Positions 3,238-26,118 of a stretch of DNA of 34,178 nucleotides are shown in pieces. The notes under the pieces were generated by a model, which was not told the DNA's origin, searched no databases, and saw nothing but the letters and a program-made list of their open reading frames with translations. Origin of the DNA: a virus (lineage: Duplodnaviria > Heunggongvirae > Uroviricota > Caudoviricetes); IMG/VR virus record IMGVR_UViG_2534681772_000018; one strand, given 5' to 3'. Made by a program: the position numbers and the translations under genes. Within the stretch, counting starts at the first letter, position 1, and each line of letters starts with the position of its first letter.

Positions 3238-3509
3238 GTATTCGTATTGAAATTGGCGAACGTTATGTCGTTACCAGTGACAGCTTTCAGTTTATTCTCC
3301 ACGAGAAAAAGAGAGCGGAAAGCGGTAAAAACGCCGGTCAGGAATGGCTGGCGGTGGTTGGTTATTACCCGAAATTAGGCCAGCTCGTTTCCGGCCTGAT
3401 GCATCACGATATTCTGACCGGAAGCGCAAAATCTTTTGCTGATTTAAACGCGCAGGTTGAGCAACTCAGCAAGCGTTGTTCAGAGGCTTTTGGCTCATAT
3501 GGCCGTTAA
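3234..3509 (+). CDS. Hypothetical early protein (P2 orf83-like)
   Basis: 91-aa ORF with GGAG upstream, overlapping the upstream stop and the start of A. Confidence 0.5.
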   Translation: MSIRIEIGERYVVTSDSFQFILHEKKRAESGKNAGQEWLAVVGYYPKLGQLVSGLMHHDILTGSAKSFADLNAQVEQLSKRCSEAFGSYGR

Positions 3510-5775
3510 AGCCTCCGGGCGTTTTGTCCCTCCGTCAGCATTTACCGCAGGCACCGGTAAGGCGTTTACCGGTGCTTATGCATGGAACGCGCCACGCGAG
3601 GCTGTCGGGCGCGAAAGACCTCTTACACGTGACGAGATGCGTCAGGTGCAAGGTGTTTTATCCACGATTAACCGCCTGCCTTACTTTTTGCGCTCGCTGT
3701 TTACTTCACGCTATGACTACATCCGGCGCAATAAAAGCCCGGTGCACGGGTTTTATTTCCTCACATCCACTTTTCAGCGTCGTTTATGGCCGCGCATTGA
3801 GCGTGTGAATCAGCGCCATGAAATGAACACCGACGCGTCGTTGCTGTTTCTGGCAGAGCGTGACCACTATGCGCGCCTGCCGGGAATGAATGACAAGGAG
3901 CTGAAAAAGTTTGCCGCCCGTATCTCATCGCAGCTTTTCATGATGTATGAGGAACTCTGCGATGCATGGGTTGATGCGCATGGTGAAAAAGAATCGCTGT
4001 TTACGGATGAGGCGCAGGCTCACCTGTATGGTCATGTTGCTGGCGCTGCACGTGCTTTCAATATTTCCCCGCTCTACTGGAAAAAATACCGTAAAGGACA
4101 GATGACCACGAGGCAGGCATATTCTGCCATTGCCCGTCTGTTTAACGATGAGTGGTGGACTCATCAGCTTAAAGGCCAGCGTATGCGCTGGCATGAAGCG
4201 TTACTGATAGCTGTCGGGGAGGTCAATAAAGACCGTTCTCCTTATGCCAGTAAACACGCCATTCGTGATGTGCGTGCGCGCCGCCAGGCAAATCTGGAAT
4301 TTCTTAAATCGTGTGACCTTGAAAACAGGGAAACCGGCGAGCGCATCGACCTTATCAGTAAGGTGATGGGCAGTATTTCTAATCCTGAAATTCGCCGGAT
4401 GGAGCTGATGAACACCATTGCCGGTATTGAGCGTTACGCCGCCGCAGAGGGCGATGTGGGGATGTTTATCACGCTGACCGCACCGTCAAAGTATCACCCG
4501 ACACGTCAGGTCGGAAAAGGCGAAAGTAAAACCGTGCAGCTTAATCACGGCTGGAACGATGAGGCATTTAATCCAAAGGATGCGCAGCGTTATCTCTGCC
4601 GTATCTGGAGCCTGATGCGCACGGCATTCAAGGATAATGATTTACAGGTTTACGGTTTGCGAGTCGTCGAGCCACACCACGACGGAACGCCGCACTGGCA
4701 TATGATGCTTTTTTGTAATCCACGCCAGCGTAACCAGATTATTGAAATCATGCGTCGCTACGCGCTCAAAGAGGATGGCGACGAAAGAGGAGCTGCGCGA
4801 AACCGTTTTCAGGCAAAACACCTTAACCGGGGCGGTGCTGCGGGATATATCGCGAAATACATTTCAAAAAACATCGACGGCTATGCACTGGATGGTCAGC
4901 TCGATAACGATACCGGCAGGCCGCTGAAAGACACTGCCGCGGCTGTTACCGCATGGGCGTCAACGTGGCGCATTCCGCAATTTAAAACGGTTGGCCTGCC
5001 GACAATGGGGGCTTACCGTGAACTACGCAAATTGCCTCGCGGCGTCAGCATTGCTGATGAGTTTGACGAGCGCGTCGAGGCTGCACGCGCCGCCGCAGAC
5101 AGTGGTGATTTTGCGTTGTATATCAGCGCGCAGGGTGGGGCAAATGTCCCGCGCGATTGTCAGACTGTCAGGGTCGCCCGTAGCCCGTCGGATGACGTTA
5201 ACGAGTACGAGGAAGAAGTCGAGAGAGTGGTCGGCATTTACGCGCCGCATCTCGGCGCGCGTCATATTCATATCACCAGAACGACGGACTGGCGCATTGT
5301 GCCGAAAGTTCCGGTCGTTGAGCCTTTGACTTTAAAAAGCGGCATCGCCGCGCCTCGGAGTCCTGTCAATAACTGTGGAAAGCTCACCGGTGGTGATACT
5401 TCGTTACCGGCTCCCACACCTTCTGAGCACGCCGCAGCAGTGCTTAATCTGGTTGATGACGGTGTTATCGAATGGAATGACCCGGAGGTCGTGAGGGCGC
5501 TCAAAAGCGCATTAAAACACGGCCTGAGAAGACCAAACCGTCAGCAAAGAAACGGAAACCCGTTAAAACCACATGAAATTGCACCATCGGCCAGACTGAG
5601 CCGGTCGGAGCGATTGCAAATCACCCGTATCCGCGTTGACCTTGCTCAGAATGGAATCTTGCCCCAGCGATGGGAGCTTGAGGCGCTGGCGCGTGGGGCA
5701 ACCGTAAATTATGACGGGAAAAAATTCACGTATCCGGTTGCTGATGAGTGGTCGGTTTTTTCAATTAAACAATAA
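3499..5775 (+). CDS. A: Rolling-circle replication initiator (P2 gpA-like, HUH endonuclease)
   Basis: About 758-aa ORF from the first ATG at 3499 (track ORF begins at TTG 3457). HUH-type metal-binding motif PHWHMMLF and paired-tyrosine motif GYIAKYISKNIDGY are typical of rolling-circle Rep proteins; position after the early ORFs matches P2 A. Confidence 0.9.
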   Translation: MAVKASGRFVPPSAFTAGTGKAFTGAYAWNAPREAVGRERPLTRDEMRQVQGVLSTINRLPYFLRSLFTSRYDYIRRNKSPVHGFYFLTSTFQRRLWPRIERVNQRHEMNTDASLLFLAERDHYARLPGMNDKELKKFAARISSQLFMMYEELCDAWVDAHGEKESLFTDEAQAHLYGHVAGAARAFNISPLYWKKYRKGQMTTRQAYSAIARLFNDEWWTHQLKGQRMRWHEALLIAVGEVNKDRSPYASKHAIRDVRARRQANLEFLKSCDLENRETGERIDLISKVMGSISNPEIRRMELMNTIAGIERYAAAEGDVGMFITLTAPSKYHPTRQVGKGESKTVQLNHGWNDEAFNPKDAQRYLCRIWSLMRTAFKDNDLQVYGLRVVEPHHDGTPHWHMMLFCNPRQRNQIIEIMRRYALKEDGDERGAARNRFQAKHLNRGGAAGYIAKYISKNIDGYALDGQLDNDTGRPLKDTAAAVTAWASTWRIPQFKTVGLPTMGAYRELRKLPRGVSIADEFDERVEAARAAADSGDFALYISAQGGANVPRDCQTVRVARSPSDDVNEYEEEVERVVGIYAPHLGARHIHITRTTDWRIVPKVPVVEPLTLKSGIAAPRSPVNNCGKLTGGDTSLPAPTPSEHAAAVLNLVDDGVIEWNDPEVVRALKSALKHGLRRPNRQQRNGNPLKPHEIAPSARLSRSERLQITRIRVDLAQNGILPQRWELEALARGATVNYDGKKFTYPVADEWSVFSIKQ
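5350..5369 (+). promoter_or_regulatory. Candidate replication origin / gpA nick site inside the A coding sequence
   Basis: Sequence GCGCCTCGGAGTCCTGTCAA lies within A; from memory the P2 ori nick site is inside gene A with this sequence. Assigned from recollection only. Confidence 0.35.
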
Positions 5776-5976
5776 TGGCTACTGCCGCAGCGTTGTGGGA
5801 ATGCTATAGTGTTTGTAGAATTATCCCATGAAAAACAACTAATTAATCTGTTTTTCATATTGAACTAATTTTTTATGGCCACAGTTGTTAAAAAGTGAGA
5901 ACATAATCTTGTTCAAAACCTGCTTCTATATACGGAGGCTTTCGCTATAATACGCGGTCGGTTTTAGGAGGGGATA

Positions 5977-6921
5977 ATGCCAACAGTAGTTTCACTTTTT
6001 TCTGGATGCGGTGGTTCCGATGCGGGGGTTCTGAGAGCTGGCTTTGATGTGCTTATGGCCAACGATATCTTGCCGTATGCGCGCGATGTTTATATTGCCA
6101 ATCATCCAGAAACTGATTACATTTTAGGCAATATTGCTGATGTAACTACTTTTCCTAAATCTGATTTGCTAGTAGGTTGTTATCCATGTCAGGGATTCAG
6201 CCAGGGTGGTGCGCGTAAGGCCGATCGAAAAATTAATACTCTTTATTTAGAGTTTGCTAGAGCTTTAAACAATATAAAGCCTAAAGCTTTTATAGTAGAA
6301 AACGTGTCTGGTATGGTTAGAAAAAACTTCGAGCATTTGTTATCTGACCAGATCAGGGTTTTTACTGAAGCAGGTTATGCTGTTTCAGCAAAAGTTTTGA
6401 ATGCGGCTGAATATGGAGTAGCGCAGGAAAGAAAAAGAATATTTATCGTAGGAATCCGTAATGATTTCAAAGTTAAGTACGAGTTCCCTCAGCCAACTCA
6501 TGGGCCGGCGACTGGCGTCAACTATGTTACTATTAAAGATGCTATAGGGCATTTACCTGAATGGCCAGAAGGTGAATTTTATGATATGGGGTTCCATTGG
6601 TATTATATGTCTCGCAATCGTCGCCAAGATTGGGATCAAATTTCAAAGACAATAGTTGCTAATGCAAGGCATATGCCGTTGCATCCTATCAGTCCTTCGA
6701 TGGAGAAAGTAAGAACTGATGAATGGAGGTTTGTTGAGGATCGGAGAGCTCGCAGATTCAGTTTTCGAGAGGCAGCACTATTACAAGGGTTTGAGGATCT
6801 AGTGTTTCCCGAAACAAATGCTGCAAGTCTTGGCATGAAATACACGGTGGTTGGTAATGCAGTGCCTCCGCCGCTTTTTGAAGCTGTAACGAAGGCATTG
6901 CCAATAGAATTATGGGATTGA
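5977..6921 (+). CDS. DNA (cytosine-5)-methyltransferase, Dcm/M.HhaI-like
   Basis: 314-aa ORF with the canonical C5-MTase motifs: motif I FSGCGG, motif IV PCQGFS (catalytic Cys), motif VI ENV, motif VIII QERKR, motif X GNAV. AGGAGGGG precedes the ATG; TATAAT at 5946-5951 upstream. Noticeably AT-rich relative to the phage backbone. Confidence 0.9.
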   Translation: MPTVVSLFSGCGGSDAGVLRAGFDVLMANDILPYARDVYIANHPETDYILGNIADVTTFPKSDLLVGCYPCQGFSQGGARKADRKINTLYLEFARALNNIKPKAFIVENVSGMVRKNFEHLLSDQIRVFTEAGYAVSAKVLNAAEYGVAQERKRIFIVGIRNDFKVKYEFPQPTHGPATGVNYVTIKDAIGHLPEWPEGEFYDMGFHWYYMSRNRRQDWDQISKTIVANARHMPLHPISPSMEKVRTDEWRFVEDRRARRFSFREAALLQGFEDLVFPETNAASLGMKYTVVGNAVPPPLFEAVTKALPIELWD

Positions 6922-6928
6922 TAAGCTA

Positions 6929-7924
6929 TTAAGGCTCTGGATTTAATGTATAAAGTTCTTCTTCAAATTCGCGAAACCAATCAGAGGTAGTTATCGCTTC
7001 CCATTGGTTTGCCTTATCAAGTAGATATATGATCCTCAACCTATCTAATAATAATACACCAGCGGTTGCATGTGTGCTTACCCATTCGCCATTTGCTTCC
7101 CGATAGAAAACAGGCGTGAACATTGTTGATGGATGCTGGAAAGCAATTTGGAAATAGGTGGTCAGTTTTAACACGTTAGCCTCTAATGTTTTGCTTGGCC
7201 ACCCTGTTTCTTGTGCACCACATTGACCAAGAATTCCATAGTTGCTAGTTTGACCATCAGGAAATTCCACTGTAGCAATTAGGTCAAACCCAGCATCACC
7301 AGATGTGGGAGCTTTATTTATTTCCCTTGTGTTTAAACTACAAACTCCAAGATCTTTTCCTAAAATTTGTAGAGCATTCCGAAGATTCGTTCCATAATAT
7401 TTTTGCCTATCATCGGAGTTAGCATCAAAAATTCTTACGGTGCCATGTGCAGGTAAGAGAGAAATCATTGCAACTTTACATACTCTGGCAAAGCTCTTTG
7501 CCCAACGTTGTGCTGCTCCTCTAATCGACTTAAAGGATCTAAGTCTAGAGCAACAAAGGAGAAAAACATATATTCTTTGTTGTTGGTTTAGATTTTCTTT
7601 AATAATTATCTCATCACCTGAAATTATAAATGGATATATCTTTCCAAGAGCGCTTTCTCTATATTCGAGTTGTGTCCAAACATCTTCTAGTTGCTCTTCA
7701 AAACGATCATTTCTCTCTGCGTCTCCATCAATTTCTTCTTCAAAATTACATTCTTCATCAATTTCTTCAACACTTGTCATGCCGAATTTTCTTACTGAAT
7801 CTAAATCATTTTTATGCAGAGAGTTACGTCCGATATAATTAATCACCGTGAGTAACTCGGCTAAATCTGCAAACAAATGGGGAGAGTTGGGATGCATAAC
7901 TCCTACTTCAAAAGTCATCATCAC
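6929..7924 (-). CDS. Hypothetical protein (331 aa), second gene of the minus-strand cargo operon; no recognisable domain
   Basis: Long AT-rich ORF whose start overlaps the stop of the upstream ParB-like gene by 17 nt (7908-7924), and whose stop lies 7 nt from the convergent MTase stop. Acidic N-terminal stretch (EEIDEECNFEEEIDGDAERNDRFEE). No Walker, HNH or clear PD-(D/E)xK motif seen by eye. Confidence 0.6.
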   Translation of the reverse strand: MMMTFEVGVMHPNSPHLFADLAELLTVINYIGRNSLHKNDLDSVRKFGMTSVEEIDEECNFEEEIDGDAERNDRFEEQLEDVWTQLEYRESALGKIYPFIISGDEIIIKENLNQQQRIYVFLLCCSRLRSFKSIRGAAQRWAKSFARVCKVAMISLLPAHGTVRIFDANSDDRQKYYGTNLRNALQILGKDLGVCSLNTREINKAPTSGDAGFDLIATVEFPDGQTSNYGILGQCGAQETGWPSKTLEANVLKLTTYFQIAFQHPSTMFTPVFYREANGEWVSTHATAGVLLLDRLRIIYLLDKANQWEAITTSDWFREFEEELYTLNPEP

Positions 7925-9029
7925 CTCTGCTATTTTTCTCTGCTATTTCAGAACCTATAAGCTTAATATGTTTATTGATTCTTCGTGCTACTTCATGAGC
8001 CTGTCTATCATACTCTACTGTGGCAACCATGCCTGCTGCATCTATCAAAGCCGCTTCAACTTGATAAAGTAACTGGAGAAAGTCCTTAGTAATATCAGAT
8101 GTCAATTGGTAGGCCACTGCGAGTGGAGCCCCCATTCGGAATTGCTCCAATGCCTTAGGGCTACTAACAACAGCAGCTAATTCTCTTAAATTACGTGACT
8201 CTCCAACACGAGTTTTTTTATCCTCACCTTTTTTATATAACCACTCAGTTAGCTCTTTTATTTCTTTGTTCTTTAAGCTATTAGAGTTGATAATAGGATG
8301 ACTTGGTATTGTGTCTCCATCGTCTTCGATTGAAACTCCGACAAATTGGCCTAACCGCTCATCAGCAAGTGCTGTTGATAATACTGAAAATTTAATCGTT
8401 TCTTCATCTAGTTTTTCAATACCATAAAAATCATTTTCTTTAATGATTTCATACACCGCTAAAGCGTCTAGGTTACGCTTGATATGATCCCTACGACTGC
8501 CAATAGCTCTGGCAACCTCATAGTAGCGTAGCATCGGATCCTGATTTGCATTGGTATAATCAAAAAGCTGTTTAATATATCGAGCTTTTGATAAGGGCTC
8601 CCATTGTTTGACACCAGTAATATGTCTGAAACCAAGATACGGAAGAATCTCTTCTCTTGTTTGGCGCTCAATGACAGGAACACGATCGACTGTATGTTTT
8701 GCATTTGATGCAATTTCTCGTAGTCGAGCACTTGGATTTTCACATAGTGTCGGATCGCGTAATAATTTAACTGCGGATAGGCGACGGTTTCCTTCAACTA
8801 CAATGTACTTCCCCGGCGCGACACTGTCAGGAATGACAATCAATGGTTCTCCAGGGAAAAAACCATTTTCCGCAATAGCACTCATTAGATCTTCGATAGA
8901 TGTTGAGGTTGCTATGTAGTTAATCATTCCCAATTGGTCACGAGACACGCCTTCAGGAAGTCTTGGGTTTTCTGTGTCAAGTTCCAAATCATCTAGCGGA
9001 ACATAAAGTATTTCTGAATCAGCAATCAT
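7908..9029 (-). CDS. ParB/Srx-like N-terminal-domain protein (ParB-like nuclease/CTPase fold)
   Basis: 373-aa ORF; N-terminal region ...ENPRLPEG...PGEPLIVIPDSVAPGKYIVVEGNRRLSAVKLL parallels the ParB N-terminal domain, including the GxRRxxA arginine patch (compare Spo0J IVAGERRFRAA). GGAGA 6 nt upstream of ATG 9029. No parA partner gene nearby. Confidence 0.75.
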   Translation of the reverse strand: MIADSEILYVPLDDLELDTENPRLPEGVSRDQLGMINYIATSTSIEDLMSAIAENGFFPGEPLIVIPDSVAPGKYIVVEGNRRLSAVKLLRDPTLCENPSARLREIASNAKHTVDRVPVIERQTREEILPYLGFRHITGVKQWEPLSKARYIKQLFDYTNANQDPMLRYYEVARAIGSRRDHIKRNLDALAVYEIIKENDFYGIEKLDEETIKFSVLSTALADERLGQFVGVSIEDDGDTIPSHPIINSNSLKNKEIKELTEWLYKKGEDKKTRVGESRNLRELAAVVSSPKALEQFRMGAPLAVAYQLTSDITKDFLQLLYQVEAALIDAAGMVATVEYDRQAHEVARRINKHIKLIGSEIAEKNSRGDDDF

Positions 9030-9255
9030 CTGGATCTCCGTTGAACATGTCTACGAGAAGGAGCACAAAGTTATTTCATAACATGCAATATACTCATTCT
9101 GTAGCCATAAATGAATTATTCATGATGTAAGATTCGCGTTGATGTGCGTGAATTCGCAAGTAATTTTATAGCAAGGTTTGATTGGGTATCGTTAGCACTG
9201 GCGCGGTTTCAACGTATTCATGCACCTGCATTAAAACCGACCCATGAAGCGGGCG

Positions 9256-9274
9256 GGCGAGGCGGGGAAAGCAC
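9256..9274. other. cos site (19-nt cohesive end sequence of P2-like phages)
   Basis: GGCGAGGCGGGGAAAGCAC matches my recollection of the P2 cohesive end; lies in the expected place between the A-side accessory locus and Q. Confidence 0.6.
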
Positions 9275-9416
9275 TGCGCGCTGGCGGTGGTGCTGATTTT
9301 ATTTTTTCAGCGTCTGAGCGCGTCGTGATGGCGTTTAGATTGTTAGCCGGGGCGTTGGTGTGTCTGCGGGCTGTTTTGTGCGGTGGTGAGCGTGTGAGAG
9401 CGTGATGGCGGGTTGT

Positions 9417-9438
9417 AAAAAAGCCGCCCGCAGGCGGC
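9417..9438 (-). terminator. Rho-independent terminator downstream of Q (minus strand)
   Basis: On the minus strand immediately after the Q stop: GCCGCC-TGCG-GGCGGC hairpin followed by TTTTTT. Confidence 0.6.
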
Positions 9439-9443
9439 GATGT

Positions 9444-10478
9444 TCAGCCGTTGTCAGTGTCCAGTGAGTAGTTTTTAAAGCGGATGACCTCCTGACCGAG
9501 CCAGCCGTTTATCTCGCGGATCCTGTCCTGTAACGGGATAAGTTCATTGCGGACAAAGACCTTTGCCACTTTCTCAATATCACCCAGCGACCCGACGTTC
9601 TCCGGCTTGCCACCCATCAACTGAAAGGGGATGCGGTGCGCGTCCAGCAGGTCAGCGGCGCTGGCTTTTTTGATATTAAAAAAATCGTCCTTCGTCGCCA
9701 CTTCACTGAGGGGGATAATTTTAATGCCGTCGGCTTTCCCCTGTGGGGCATAGAGAAACAGGTTTTTAAAGTTGTTGCGGCCTTTCGACTTGACCATGTT
9801 TTCGCGAAGCATTTCGATATCGTTGCGGTCCTGCACGGCATCGGTGACGTACATGATGTATCCGGCATGTGCGCCGTTTTCGTAATACTTGCGGCGGAAC
9901 AGCGTGGCCGACTCATTCAGCCAGGCAGAGTTAAGGGCGCTGAGATATTCCGGCAGACCGTACAGCTCCTGATTAATATCCGGCTCCAGCAGGTGAAACA
10001 CGGAGCCGGGCGCGAAAGGTGTCGGCTCGTTGAAAGACGGCACCCACCAGTAAACATCCTCCTCCACGCCACGACGGGTATATTTGGCCGGTGAGGTTTC
10101 CAGTCTGATGACCTTACCGGTGGTGCTGTAACGCTTTTCCAGAAACGCATTACCGAACACCAGAAAATCCAGCACAAAACGGCTGAAATCCTGCTGGGAA
10201 AGCCACGGGTGCGGGATAAACGTTGAAGCCAGAATATTACGTTTGACGTAAATCGGTGAGCTGTGATGCACGGCAGCACGCAGACTTTTTGCCAGGCCGG
10301 TAAAGCTGACCGGTGGCTCATACCATCTGCCGTTACTGATGCACTCGACGTAATCCAGAATGTCACGCCGGTCGAGTACCGGTACCGGCTCACCAAAGGT
10401 GAATGCCTCCATTTTCGGGGCGCTGGCGGTCATTGTTTTTGCCGCAGGTTGCGGTGTTTTCCCTTTTTTCTTGCTCAT
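9444..10478 (-). CDS. Q: Portal protein (P2 gpQ)
   Basis: 344-aa ORF, same length as P2 Q, divergent from the O-N-M capsid operon and immediately downstream of P on the minus strand. Confidence 0.9.
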   Translation of the reverse strand: MSKKKGKTPQPAAKTMTASAPKMEAFTFGEPVPVLDRRDILDYVECISNGRWYEPPVSFTGLAKSLRAAVHHSSPIYVKRNILASTFIPHPWLSQQDFSRFVLDFLVFGNAFLEKRYSTTGKVIRLETSPAKYTRRGVEEDVYWWVPSFNEPTPFAPGSVFHLLEPDINQELYGLPEYLSALNSAWLNESATLFRRKYYENGAHAGYIMYVTDAVQDRNDIEMLRENMVKSKGRNNFKNLFLYAPQGKADGIKIIPLSEVATKDDFFNIKKASAADLLDAHRIPFQLMGGKPENVGSLGDIEKVAKVFVRNELIPLQDRIREINGWLGQEVIRFKNYSLDTDNG

Positions 10479-21116: not shown

Positions 21117-22309
21117 ATGAGCACAAAATTCAGAACCGTTATCACCACTGCCGGTGCAGCAAAGCTGGCAGCGGCAACCGCGCCGGGAGGGCGGAAGGTC
21201 AACATTACCACGATGGCCGTCGGGGATGGCGGTGGTAAATTGCCTGTCCCGGATGCCGGACAGACCGGGCTTATCCACGAAGTCTGGCGACATGCGCTGA
21301 ACAAAATCAGCCAGGACAAACGAAACAGTAATTATATTATCGCAGAGCTGGTTATTCCGCCGGAGGTGGGCGGTTTCTGGATGCGTGAGCTTGGCCTGTA
21401 CGATGATGCGGGAACGTTAATTGCCGTGGCGAACATGGCCGAAAGTTATAAGCCAGCTCTTGCCGAAGGCTCAGGGCGTTCGCAGACCTGCCGCATGGTC
21501 ATCATCGTCAGCAGTGTGGCCTCAGTGGAGCTGACCATTGACACCACAACGGTGATGGCGACGCAGGATTACGTTGATGACAAAATTGCAGAGCACGAAC
21601 AGTCACGACGTCACCCGGACGCCTCGCTGACCGCAAAAGGTTTTACTCAGTTAAGCAGTGCGACCAACAGCATGTCTGAAATGCTTGCCGCAACGCCAAA
21701 AGCCGTTAAGACGGTAATGGATGAAACGAACAAGAAAGCGCCATTAAACAGCCCTGTACTGACCGGAACGCCAACGACGCCAACTGCGCGACAGGGAACG
21801 AATAATACTCAGATCGCAAACACGGCTTTCGTTATGGCCGCGATTGCCGCCCTTGTAGACTCGTCGCCTGACGCACTGAATACGCTGAACGAGCTGGCGG
21901 CGGCGCTGGGCAATGACCCGAATTTTGCTACCACCATGACTAATGCGCTTGCGGGTAAGCAACCGAAAGATGCTACCCTGACGGCGCTGGCGGGGCTTGC
22001 TACTGCGGCAGACAGGTTTCCGTATTTTACGGGGAATGATGTTGCCAGCCTGGCAACCCTGACAAAAGTCGGGCGGGATATTCTGGCTAAATCGACCGTT
22101 GCCGCCGTTATCGAATATCTCGGTTTACAGGAAACGGTAAACCGAGCCGGGAACGCCGTGCAAAAAAATGGCGATACCTTGTCCGGTGGACTTACTTTTG
22201 AAAACGACTCAATCCTTGCCTGGATTCGAAATACTGACTGGGCGAAGATTGGATTTAAAAATGATGCCGATGGTGACACTGATTCATTCATGTGGTTTGA
22301 AACGGGGGA
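21117..22309 (+). pseudogene. H: Tail fibre protein H, 5' fragment, interrupted by IS2
   Basis: ORF begins at 21117 after I and reads ...FMWFETGD up to the IS2 boundary at 22310. The track ORF 21117..22481 continues into IS2 sequence before a stop. Confidence 0.85.
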
Positions 22310-22320
22310 TGGATTTGCCC

Positions 22321-23226
22321 CTATATTTCCAGACACCTGTTATCACTTAACCCATTACTGGCCTGCTGCCGCAGATATTCCCGTGGCGAGCGATAACCCA
22401 GTGCACTATGCGGATGCCATTCGTTATAATGCTCGAACGCCTCTGCAAGGTTCTTTGCTGCCGTTAACCCGTCTGGTTTAGGCATGATACTGATGTAGTC
22501 ACGCTTTATCGTTTTCACGAAGCTCTCTGCTATGCCGTTACTCTCCGGACTCCGCACCGCCGTGTTCTTCGGTTCAAGCCCCAACATCCGGGCAAACTGC
22601 CGTGTTTCATTAGCCCGGTAGCATGAACCATTATCCGTCAGCCACTCTACTGGAGACGCCGGAAGCTCGTTGCCGAAGCGGCGTTCCACCGCTCCCAGCA
22701 TTACGTCCTGTACTGTTTCACTGTCGAAGCCGCCCGTAGTGACTGCCCAGTGCAGTGCCTCACGGTCACAGCAGTCCAGCGCGAACGTGACTCGCAGTTT
22801 TTCTCCGTTATCACAGCGGAACTCGAACCCGTCAGAGCACCATCGTTGATTGCTTTCTTTCACGGCCACTTTGCCAGTATGTGCCCGTTTCGATGGCGGT
22901 ACAGCGGTTTTTCGCTCAAGCAACAGCGCATTCTGGCGCATGATCCGGTAAACACGTTTGGCATTGATCGCAGGCATACCATCAAGTTCGGCCTGTCTGC
23001 GAAGCAGCGCCCATACCCGACGATAACCATACGTGGGCAGCTCTCCGATAACATGGTGTATACGGAGAAGCACATCCGTATCATCTGAGTGACGGCTGCG
23101 GCGACCATCTTTCCAGTCATCGGTTCGTCTGAGAATTACGTGCAACTGCGCACGCGACACCCGGAGACAACGGCTGACTAAGCTTACTCCCCATCCCCGG
23201 GCAATAAGGGCGCGTGCGCTATCCAC
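22321..23226 (-). CDS. insD: IS2 transposase OrfB (InsD, DDE catalytic domain); normally expressed as an OrfAB fusion by -1 frameshift
   Basis: 301-aa [33 protein letters not shown]... recognised as IS2 InsD; overlaps the end of orfA in the -1 frame. Confidence 0.9.
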
Positions 23227-23549
23227 TTTTTTGCACGCCCGTATTCAACGGCTTCTTTAAGGAGTTCATTTTCCATCGTTTTTTTGCCGAGCAGGCGCTG
23301 GAGTTCTTTAATCTGCTTCATGGCAGCAGCAAGTTCAGAGGCAGGAACGACCTGCTCTCCTGCGGCCACAGCAGTAAGACTTCCCTCCTGGTATTGCTTG
23401 CGCCAGAGAAATAACTGGCTGGCTGCCACACCGTGTTGCCGGGCAACAAGGGAGACCGTCATTCCCGGTTCAAAACTCTGCTGAACAATAGCGATCTTTT
23501 CCTGTGTAGTACGCCGTCTGCGTTTCTCCGGTCCTAAGACATCAATCAT
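23184..23549 (-). CDS. insC: IS2 transposase OrfA (InsC, HTH DNA-binding)
   Basis: 121-aa ORF from ATG 23549 ([29 protein letters not shown]...) recognised as IS2 InsC. Confidence 0.9.
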
Positions 23550-25218: not shown

Positions 25219-26118
25219 ATGAGTGGTATTCGTATAACTCAGGCTATTGATAACAATCAGATTTTAGTCAATGTAAATACTTTTAATTATAGTGTTAATC
25301 CCTATCCACTCAAATGTCCTGACCCAAATTGCTCTGCTCATTTGGTGTATGTCAAAAGCCATATTCGTCGGAGTTTTAATAAAACCTTGCATATCCCCGC
25401 CTTCTTTAGACTGGAAAAAAATTTCACGCATGACAAATTATGTCAGTATGGAACTTCAGGATTGAATACAATTTATGCAAGTGATTCCAGTCATGATATC
25501 AGCCGTGCGCTTGCCACAGGTAATAATATATTCCGTATACATATACTCGATGAAGATGATATCTCTAAATTAAGCAGAAAAGCTGCAGCTATGCAGGCAA
25601 ATCCACCTTCTGATACTACAGACCGCGTTTATGTCAAGAGAGGTCGGAAAGCCCCCTATGTGAAGAACATGGATAGCTTACGGGAGATCTATGAATATGG
25701 AAAAGCTCACCCCAACAAGAGAAACAGCATAAAAATTGTTACTGGAACAAGTACTGTAACGTGGTCTGATTTTTTCTATGAAACAACGCAGTTAGAACGA
25801 TTGTCAACTTACCTCCAGAAAGTAAAAATAGCTCAGGTTGCTGTAATTATGAAAGTGCATGTGGCGAGAATCCCTATGGCGAAATTTAATTATCGACACT
25901 TCATTGAAGGTTCGCCAATGAGGATAAAAGGGGGCTTTAATATATATCCTACGATTCAATTAGGAAATGTTACTCCAAAATTATTTCCGTTGAGTAGCAT
26001 TGTCATGGTACTCGGTAAATTTACTATTCCAACAAATAGAAAAATGATAATGGATCCAACATTTGAGCGTGAAGTCAGAACCATAGTTTCTAGTGAAGAG
26101 CAAGTGCTAATTCTTTGA
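25219..26118 (+). CDS. Hypothetical protein (299 aa) at the P2 Z/fun accessory locus; candidate defence/exclusion gene
   Basis: AT-rich ORF between G and FI, the position of Z/fun in P2. GGAGGAG precedes the ATG. N-terminal Cys/His cluster (KCPDPNCSAHL...H...C). No similarity to structural genes that I can recognise. Confidence 0.6.
   Translation: MSGIRITQAIDNNQILVNVNTFNYSVNPYPLKCPDPNCSAHLVYVKSHIRRSFNKTLHIPAFFRLEKNFTHDKLCQYGTSGLNTIYASDSSHDISRALATGNNIFRIHILDEDDISKLSRKAAAMQANPPSDTTDRVYVKRGRKAPYVKNMDSLREIYEYGKAHPNKRNSIKIVTGTSTVTWSDFFYETTQLERLSTYLQKVKIAQVAVIMKVHVARIPMAKFNYRHFIEGSPMRIKGGFNIYPTIQLGNVTPKLFPLSSIVMVLGKFTIPTNRKMIMDPTFEREVRTIVSSEEQVLIL

Follow-up and report, generated by a model that had tools for sequence, protein, structure and literature searches.

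The 34,178-nucleotide (nt) window analyzed here (the whole stretch of DNA in IMG/VR record IMGVR_UViG_2534681772_000018) is a P2-type (Peduovirus) Escherichia coli prophage. Between gpA and gpQ, in a known anti-phage hotspot, it carries a mobile three-gene, restriction-modification (R-M)-like cassette comprising a ParB-like protein gene, the overlapping gene of a partner protein, and a C5 DNA cytosine methyltransferase (MTase) gene. The ParB-like protein and its partner are probably the restriction half of this cassette, which would be an RM-like anti-phage system carried as lysogenic-conversion cargo of the prophage. According to this reading, the M.HaeIII-like C5 MTase would mark host and prophage DNA; the ParB-like protein would bind DNA via its ParB-type helix-turn-helix (HTH), its nucleotide pocket (NPR, EGNRR) acting as a nucleoside triphosphate (NTP)-driven switch; and the coupled partner, predicted to combine a winged helix with a PD-(D/E)xK-like domain, would cut DNA lacking the mark, e.g., incoming phage DNA. 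A preliminary description, made from the letters of positions 6929 to 9029, had taken the pair for an effector/sensor module. That idea survives in the light of the pairing, the folds, and the defense hotspot, but it was incomplete in that the adjacent MTase, the P2 hotspot, and the prior cataloguing of the arrangement as "RM-like" had been missed. It is the neighboring MTase that gives the module a restriction-modification logic. The features of the region are listed below.

3457..5775, plus strand: gpA, P2-type replication endonuclease, left hotspot border (open reading frame [ORF] and RefSeq product "replication endonuclease").
5977..6921, plus strand: C5 DNA cytosine MTase, M.HaeIII-like, 314 amino acids (aa), putative modification (self-marking) gene.
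6929..7918, minus strand: partner protein, 329 aa, predicted N-terminal winged helix and C-terminal PD-(D/E)xK-like nuclease domain, putative effector.
7908..7928, minus strand: translational-coupling junction, with the AGAGG Shine-Dalgarno sequence at 7928-7924, the partner ATG at 7918-7916, and the ParB-like stop codon TGA at 7910-7908.
7908..9029, minus strand: ParB-like protein, 373 aa, ParB/Srx N-domain with EGNRR, ParB-type HTH, and C-terminal helical domain, putative NTP-switched DNA sensor.
9256..9274, plus strand: presumed P2 cos cohesive-end sequence GGCGAGGCGGGGAAAGCAC, single exact match.
9444..10478, minus strand: gpQ portal protein, right hotspot border (ORF and RefSeq "phage portal protein").

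The cassette is cos-proximal and sits between gpA and gpQ like old/tin of P2, with a GC content of 38 to 42% versus 50 to 58% in the flanks. The 19-mer GGCGAGGCGGGGAAAGCAC, which we take to be the P2 cos sequence, has one exact match in the window (9256-9274), none being expected by chance. The P2 hotspot is bounded by gpA and gpQ and adjoins cos (Rousset et al. 2022), and the old/tin locus of P2 is a documented anti-phage hotspot (Rousset et al. 2022; Vassallo et al. 2022). The 3.8-kb cassette region (5700-9500) was found in 48 of 5,426 complete genomes, including those of TW10590 (100% identity) and ATCC 8739 (99.6% identity).

Both ORFs of the pair are present on the minus strand where the preliminary description had placed them, and the proteins are conserved at 40 to 65% identity in gamma- and betaproteobacteria, hence they represent real genes and not chance ORFs. 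The two coding regions do overlap, as had been noted, although the figures then given (17 nt and a 331-aa downstream product) correspond to the longest ORF, starting at GTG 7924. Translation of the partner almost certainly begins at ATG 7918, which is preceded by an AGAGG Shine-Dalgarno sequence 5 nt upstream and agrees with the 329 aa annotated in RefSeq and the 327 to 330 aa of homologues; the product is thus 329 aa long and the true overlap is 11 nt (ATGACTTTTGA). An overlapping or abutting arrangement of the ParB-like and partner genes was also present in other loci.

The linkage of the three genes was analyzed in 83 loci from genomes and metagenomes (68 distinct, reaching about 25% identity), in which ORFs were scored with profiles of all three proteins. 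The ParB-like gene was immediately upstream of the partner gene in 59 of the 60 testable loci. For identities to the window proteins, correlation was strong when the ParB-like protein was compared with the partner (r = 0.94) and looser when either of these was compared with the MTase (0.46 and 0.55), with MTases at least 67% identical being found with pairs only 25 to 38% identical. The ParB-like protein and its partner thus co-evolve as a unit, with modification modules being exchanged, and are obligate or near-obligate partners that may form a complex.

The link to a DNA modification module is near constant. Of 54 testable loci, 47 had a C5 MTase gene beside the pair (convergent in 16, downstream on the same strand in 26, and upstream in 5), and in the distant locus L020 it was followed by a gene for Vsr, a classic companion of 5-methylcytosine (5mC) systems. 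Loci L081 and L083 have an N6_N4 MTase in place of the C5 MTase. In L079 (3415-7895; also L080), a complete PD-lambda-5 system lies directly downstream of the pair (A, E = 1e-122; B, the D12 MTase, E = 5e-120). Genes for DNA phosphorothioation were recognized in L062 and L063 (DndC, DndD, and DndE, all over the NCBIfam cutoffs), L052 (an IscS/DndA-like desulfurase plus DndE and DndD), and L068 (DndD and DndE). In two further loci, L011 and L043, transposases occupied the expected position of the modification gene. Among 32 IMG/VR viral contigs, the trio was intact wherever DNA was available, with the C5 MTase adjacent in 31 and a gpQ-like portal gene (58 to 100% identical) adjacent in 23, indicating that the cassette circulates in diverse P2-family phages at one slot. 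It was also found beside an integrase gene in a Burkholderia lambdoid prophage and in a Methylophilaceae Rep_trans element.

Several of these loci showed additional peculiarities. The pair is convergent with the dndCDE genes in L062 (5802-9777), L052 (5969-8203), and L068 (2317-5952), that is, at the usual position of DndFGH/DndI. This suggests that the pair in dnd loci is a further, undescribed restriction partner of phosphorothioate modification. A gene of 421 to 457 aa with an S-adenosylmethionine-dependent methyltransferase domain is found at the dnd-linked position in L068 and L069. The L079 array is operon-like, with two ParB-fold effectors and one D12 MTase. In the Methylophilaceae element, an HNH_2-domain gene (254 to 310 aa; 7165-7929 in L003/L008, 3165-4097 in L004) is interposed between the nuclease-like gene and the C5 MTase gene and may encode an accessory or second nuclease. 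In L081 (2161-6826), from an unrelated metagenomic phage, the pair and its N6_N4 MTase adjoin a portal gene (Phage_portal, E = 1e-107), echoing the portal-proximal P2 hotspot.

In the ParB-like protein, an N-domain of the ParB/Srx fold carries the arginines of Box I (NPR) and Box II (G-x-R-R) and precedes a ParB-type HTH. The motifs from which the preliminary description had recognized it (ENPRLP, PLIVIP, and YIVVEGNRRLSAVKLL) are all found in the 373-aa translation. Residues 9 to 192 match 26 PADLOC PD-Lambda-5_A models (best E = 1.6e-28, profile positions 7 to 196 of 440), all matches ending by about residue 192 to 200 of 373, while residues 43 to 339 match the PADLOC candidate PDC-M38A. The C-terminal domain is all helical with no match to HNH, and no Pfam match to DUF262 was found in the protein. 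Across 60 divergent homologues, the invariant residues are D18, N21-P22-R23 (Box I), E79-G80-N81-R82-R83 (Box II), G133, H136, G139, W143, and K148, all of which map to the nucleotide pocket. In EGNRR, an invariant asparagine in the same 60 homologues replaces the glutamate that, in the canonical GERR motif of ParB, is required for CTP hydrolysis. The motif shares an acidic-Gly-amide-x-Arg pattern with the DGQQR of DUF262 NTPases, in one of which, DndI, the R87A substitution within DGQQR abolishes ATPase activity and defense. From these sequence features, we infer that the protein would bind NTP and act as a nucleotide-dependent switch, the identity of the nucleotide being unpredictable from sequence.

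The ParB/Srx N-domain, the Box I/II arginines, and the ParB-type HTH are shared with ParABS systems and with the CTP-dependent clamps KorB and Noc. The pair differs from these in that it has an asparagine for the catalytic glutamate, another C-terminal domain, nuclease-like and MTase partners, and neither a ParA, a parS, nor a ParA interaction motif. No ParA gene is annotated in RefSeq anywhere in the prophage or its flanks, the neighbors being the MTase, gpA, and gpQ genes. A repeat scan of 5700-9500 detected only short, chance-level repeats and no parS-like array, the preliminary description having named a parS site as a possible refutation of its proposal. An LG[KR]GL-like ParA interaction motif is not present in the N terminus (MIADSEILYVPLDDLELDTENPRLP). 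These three absences rule out a partition system, which an integrated prophage such as P2 does not need, and bear out the earlier placement of this ParB/Srx protein outside a partition context. The broader notion of a partition or regulatory ParB, i.e., a centromere binder or a KorB/DndB-like regulator of the MTase to which the partner is unrelated, is likewise largely refuted and hardly credible, given that the partner is adjacent in all but one of the testable loci and co-evolves with the ParB-like protein and that a candidate shared upstream element is no better than chance. The latter, a 32-nt similar element 5′ of both outward-facing genes (5853-5884 and 9099-9130), was considered as a C-box-like operator and rejected: its 18/24 matches equal the best of 30 shuffles, no comparable counterpart was found in 11 other loci, and the similarity is probably due to chance in AT-rich DNA. 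DndB identity was also discarded, as the ParB-like protein has no NCBIfam DndB match and the pair in L062, convergent with dndCDE, occupies a restriction-partner rather than a dndB position.

The partner protein has no match in Pfam, NCBIfam, or PADLOC, its sole match being PHROG 3984, to which no function is assigned. It had accordingly been called an "orphan," a label that does not hold, since 273 close homologues were found and, in an exhaustive profile search at the level of 50% identity clusters, 1,263 representatives, nearly all of the latter stand-alone proteins of 300 to 360 aa. A fold search of the kind proposed in the preliminary description returned a PD-(D/E)xK-like fold: the structural model, predicted with confidence, comprises a winged helix and a PD-(D/E)xK-like putative nuclease domain, with MspJI and other restriction enzymes as the best matches at modest scores. 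In 70 homologues reaching down to about 22% identity, D20, E23, R89, P98, F99, Y119, G209, D210, G212, D214, D223, C235, K245, D294, R295, and R297 are invariant and Q234 is conserved at 95%. According to DSSP assignments on the model, D214 directly precedes one strand (215-219) and Q234 is at the end of the next (229-235), where a D...(E/Q)xK motif is expected. The residue at +2 from Q234 is G/A instead of K, so the motif lysine would have to be provided by the invariant K245.

Support for the nuclease assignment was also sought at the sequence level. Searches of the PDB with the partner, by phmmer and by profile, gave no match; Pfam and PADLOC scans of the partner and 40 distant homologues gave one marginal mREase_II match (E = 0.008); and hhalign comparisons with E. 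coli Mrr, McrC, and a 24-sequence Mrr profile were not significant (Mrr profile probability, 2.8%). Because these attempts failed, the C-terminal domain is considered a likely nuclease on the evidence of the model, with a sizeable margin of doubt. The partner resembles Mrr and MspJI in its two-domain layout of about 300 to 330 aa, with a winged helix at the N terminus and a nuclease domain at the C terminus (PF14338 plus PF04471 in Mrr), and in the order of its motifs (G-D-x-G-x-D, Q-x-x in the next strand, F-T-P/T-T-S, and L-x-D-x-x-R/L). It differs from them in having no significant sequence or profile similarity, no QxK lysine at the canonical position, and in that it always travels with the ParB-like protein and not alone.

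That the best structural match of the modeled partner is a 5mC-dependent enzyme, MspJI, and that a ParB-superfamily NTPase plus a nuclease is also the design of GmrSD and BrxU, would fit a Type IV-like, modification-dependent nuclease pair directed, like GmrSD and MspJI, against phage DNA that is modified, the MTase then having an unrelated role such as shielding P2 DNA from host restriction. We regard this as very improbable: an active 5mC MTase at its side would make a 5mC-dependent nuclease suicidal, the tight link to modification genes of several chemistries suits protection rather than targeting, and the similarity to MspJI is limited to the catalytic domain, no SRA-like reader domain being seen.

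The third gene encodes a C5 MTase (Pfam DNA_methylase [PF00145], E = 5e-65; NCBIfam dcm, E = 3e-56) with all catalytic motifs intact in the translation (FSGCGG, PCQ, ENV, QERKR, and GNAVP). It aligns over its full length, including the target recognition domain, only with M.HaeIII (1dct; E = 2.8e-48), whereas the alignments with M.HhaI and Dnmt1 cover only the catalytic half. PD-Lambda-5_B was absent from its best 25 PADLOC matches. The gene is convergent with that of the partner, their stop codons being 7 nt apart, and this placement of an MTase gene next to putative restriction genes is shared with classical Type II R-M systems.

Among known defense systems, PD-lambda-5 from ECOR7, a validated two-gene "ParB/HEPN, methyltransferase" system with broad anti-phage protection (Vassallo et al. 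2022), is similar in several respects: it has a homologous ParB-type N-half, is paired with a DNA MTase, is carried by a prophage, and is adjacent to the pair in L079. Its A protein, however, is about 440 to 500 aa long with a DUF4145/HEPN-type C-terminal region, compared to the 373 aa and other C-terminal helical domain of the ParB-like protein, and its MTase is a D12 N6-adenine enzyme, as opposed to the C5 enzyme and the separate PD-(D/E)xK-like partner, in place of HEPN, found here. The true PD-lambda-5_A of L079 matches end to end (4-446 versus 5-464 of 466). Strict membership in PD-lambda-5 was therefore rejected, as both the C-terminal half and the MTase class differ.

These similarities bear on whether the pair acts instead in the manner of PD-lambda-5, a compacted "RM+Abi" in the interpretation of its authors (Vassallo et al. 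2022). Here, the sensor would detect an infection cue, such as missing methylation, an anti-restriction protein, or some structure in the phage DNA, and the nuclease would damage host and phage DNA, killing the cell, with the MTase as a guard. In addition to the homologous N-half and the direct juxtaposition to a full PD-lambda-5 in L079, the free swapping of MTases would be easier to accommodate if the effector were not sequence matched to the MTase. However, the near-obligate association with DNA modification genes of four chemistries has its simplest explanation in an effector that is held off by a self-mark, and the HEPN-type C-terminal region of PD-lambda-5 is absent, the match stopping at about residue 192. 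On these grounds, we consider killing of this type rather unlikely and restriction of unmarked DNA the more probable explanation, although the data would fit either.

The three-gene arrangement is already catalogued and is mechanistically uncharacterized. Table S5A of Rousset et al. (2022) lists "DNA_methylase + hypothetical + ParBc" in at least 98 rows. Table S5B assigns the arrangement to hotspot system #2, which has 1,136 occurrences when HEPN/D12 variants are counted in, and annotates it as an "RM-like system"; among the cargo of the P2 hotspot in E. coli, this class reportedly ranks second in abundance (Rousset et al. 2022). The gene arrangement, the gpA-gpQ hotspot, and the three families are identical to those described here, the difference being that the system was only catalogued and labeled and that its cloned representative, pFR107, belongs to a divergent lineage and was not validated. 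Our literature search found no account of the partner fold, the wider distribution of the module, or its mechanism beyond the Rousset catalogue.

Three sets of observations weigh against restriction by the pair. First, pFR107, a homologous cassette cloned from E. coli ATCC 9637, is listed in Table S2B among the "additional tested systems," not validated, having been assayed under its native promoter in K-12 MG1655 with eight phages (Rousset et al. 2022). Second, the swapping of MTase modules between divergent ParB/partner lineages fits poorly with a simple Type II model based on sequence matching. Third, L006, L016, and L082 show no recognizable modification gene despite ample flanks. As to the first, the pFR107 proteins fall in the same three families as those of the window (hmmsearch E = 5e-74, 5e-75, and 4e-144), with identities of 76% for the MTase, 34% for the ParB-like protein, and 26% for the partner. 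In MG1655, DNA with 5mC methylation is a target of McrBC, McrA, and Mrr, and an M.HaeIII-like enzyme would create RmC sites attacked by McrBC. Active pFR107 clones may therefore have been counterselected in this host, weakening the negative result. For PD-lambda-5, a host deleted for the mrr-containing region was needed (Vassallo et al. 2022).

The outcome with pFR107 is also what might be expected of a selfish addiction cassette that stabilizes itself and the prophage by postsegregational killing without conferring meaningful protection against phages. It is well established that Type II-like R-M cassettes can behave as addiction modules, and the present one moves as a unit among the P2 hotspot, a lambdoid prophage, and a Rep_trans element. 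Nevertheless, the slot is shared with validated defense genes of P2-type phages, where the RM-like class is reportedly the second most abundant; addiction is moreover compatible with defense, and the negative test was made in a 5mC-restricting host. Addiction as the sole function thus appears quite improbable.

If the pair is indeed the restriction half of the cassette, the swapping of modification modules argues against Type II-style sequence matching and leaves either DndI-like sensing of the mark or recruitment via the modification enzyme. A direct precedent is DndI, which combines a ParB-superfamily NTPase with a nuclease in one polypeptide. It serves Dnd phosphorothioation as restriction partner and becomes toxic when the modification is missing; the mark stimulates hydrolysis of NTP and frees the protein from self DNA. 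With DndI, SspE, GmrSD, and BrxU, the pair would share a ParB-superfamily nucleotide-switch domain and a nuclease tied to a modification mark, and some of its members adjoin dndCDE. The difference is that those proteins have DUF262 with a fused DUF1524 HNH domain, while the pair has no DUF262, a ParB-type HTH, a separate PD-(D/E)xK-like polypeptide, and usually a C5 MTase. The division of labor we propose would resemble that of NTP-dependent two-subunit R-M systems of the LlaJI/BsuMI type, in which C5 methylation protects, and an NTPase/DNA-binding subunit and a separate PD-(D/E)xK subunit restrict. The NTPase of these systems is a McrB-type AAA+ GTPase, not a ParB-fold protein. In Menshen (NsnABC), an ABC/OLD-type ATPase, NsnB, stands between the ParB-like sensor and the effector, whereas here the ParB-like gene overlaps that of the partner directly and there is no ATPase gene.

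A more specific mechanism is possible, although we put it forward only tentatively. The ParB-like protein may be a nucleotide-gated (CTP/ATP) DNA-loading/scanning switch of the ParB/KorB kind that serves as the self/non-self reader of the restriction enzyme and licenses a nuclease of a new family on unmarked DNA, being portable among 5mC, N6/N4-methyl, and phosphorothioate marks. Should this be the case, the nucleotide-gated reader would represent a class of restriction machinery, based on the ParB-CTPase fold, that has not been described before.

If borne out, the restriction function would reveal a widespread, mechanistically unexplored module, considering the 1,263 clusters of the partner family. 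It would extend the ParB-CTPase fold, the non-partition roles of which are under active study, to modification-linked restriction, and would add a new nuclease family. Since there is no Pfam, NCBIfam, or PADLOC model for the partner, the system escapes current defense-finding tools. Being associated with four modification chemistries, it lends itself to the study of how a restriction effector matches, or is independent of, its self-mark. Many E. coli lysogens may, in that event, carry an unrecognized 5mC methylation/restriction barrier affecting phage therapy and transformation.

Other observations concern the prophage as a whole. GATC is scarce in the window (38 observed versus 137 expected under a Markov model; observed/expected ratio, 0.28; z = −8.4), its depletion far exceeding that of every other 4-bp palindrome. 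GGCC came second with a ratio of 0.66; its avoidance was considered as a sign of MTase specificity and, for lack of a baseline from the host genome, judged uninformative. Another island of low GC content (0.39) between the tail-fiber assembly and tail sheath genes contains a gene for a 299-aa hypothetical protein (25219-26118, plus strand) with no PADLOC match, at the position of the second P2 defense hotspot (Z/fun) described by Vassallo et al. Lastly, the tail-fiber gene (21117-23549) is truncated by an IS3-family transposase. RefSeq annotates it as "phage tail protein, incomplete" and the gene that follows as an IS3 transposase with a programmed frameshift. As a consequence of this truncation, the prophage may be adsorption defective while its hotspot cargo is still expressed.

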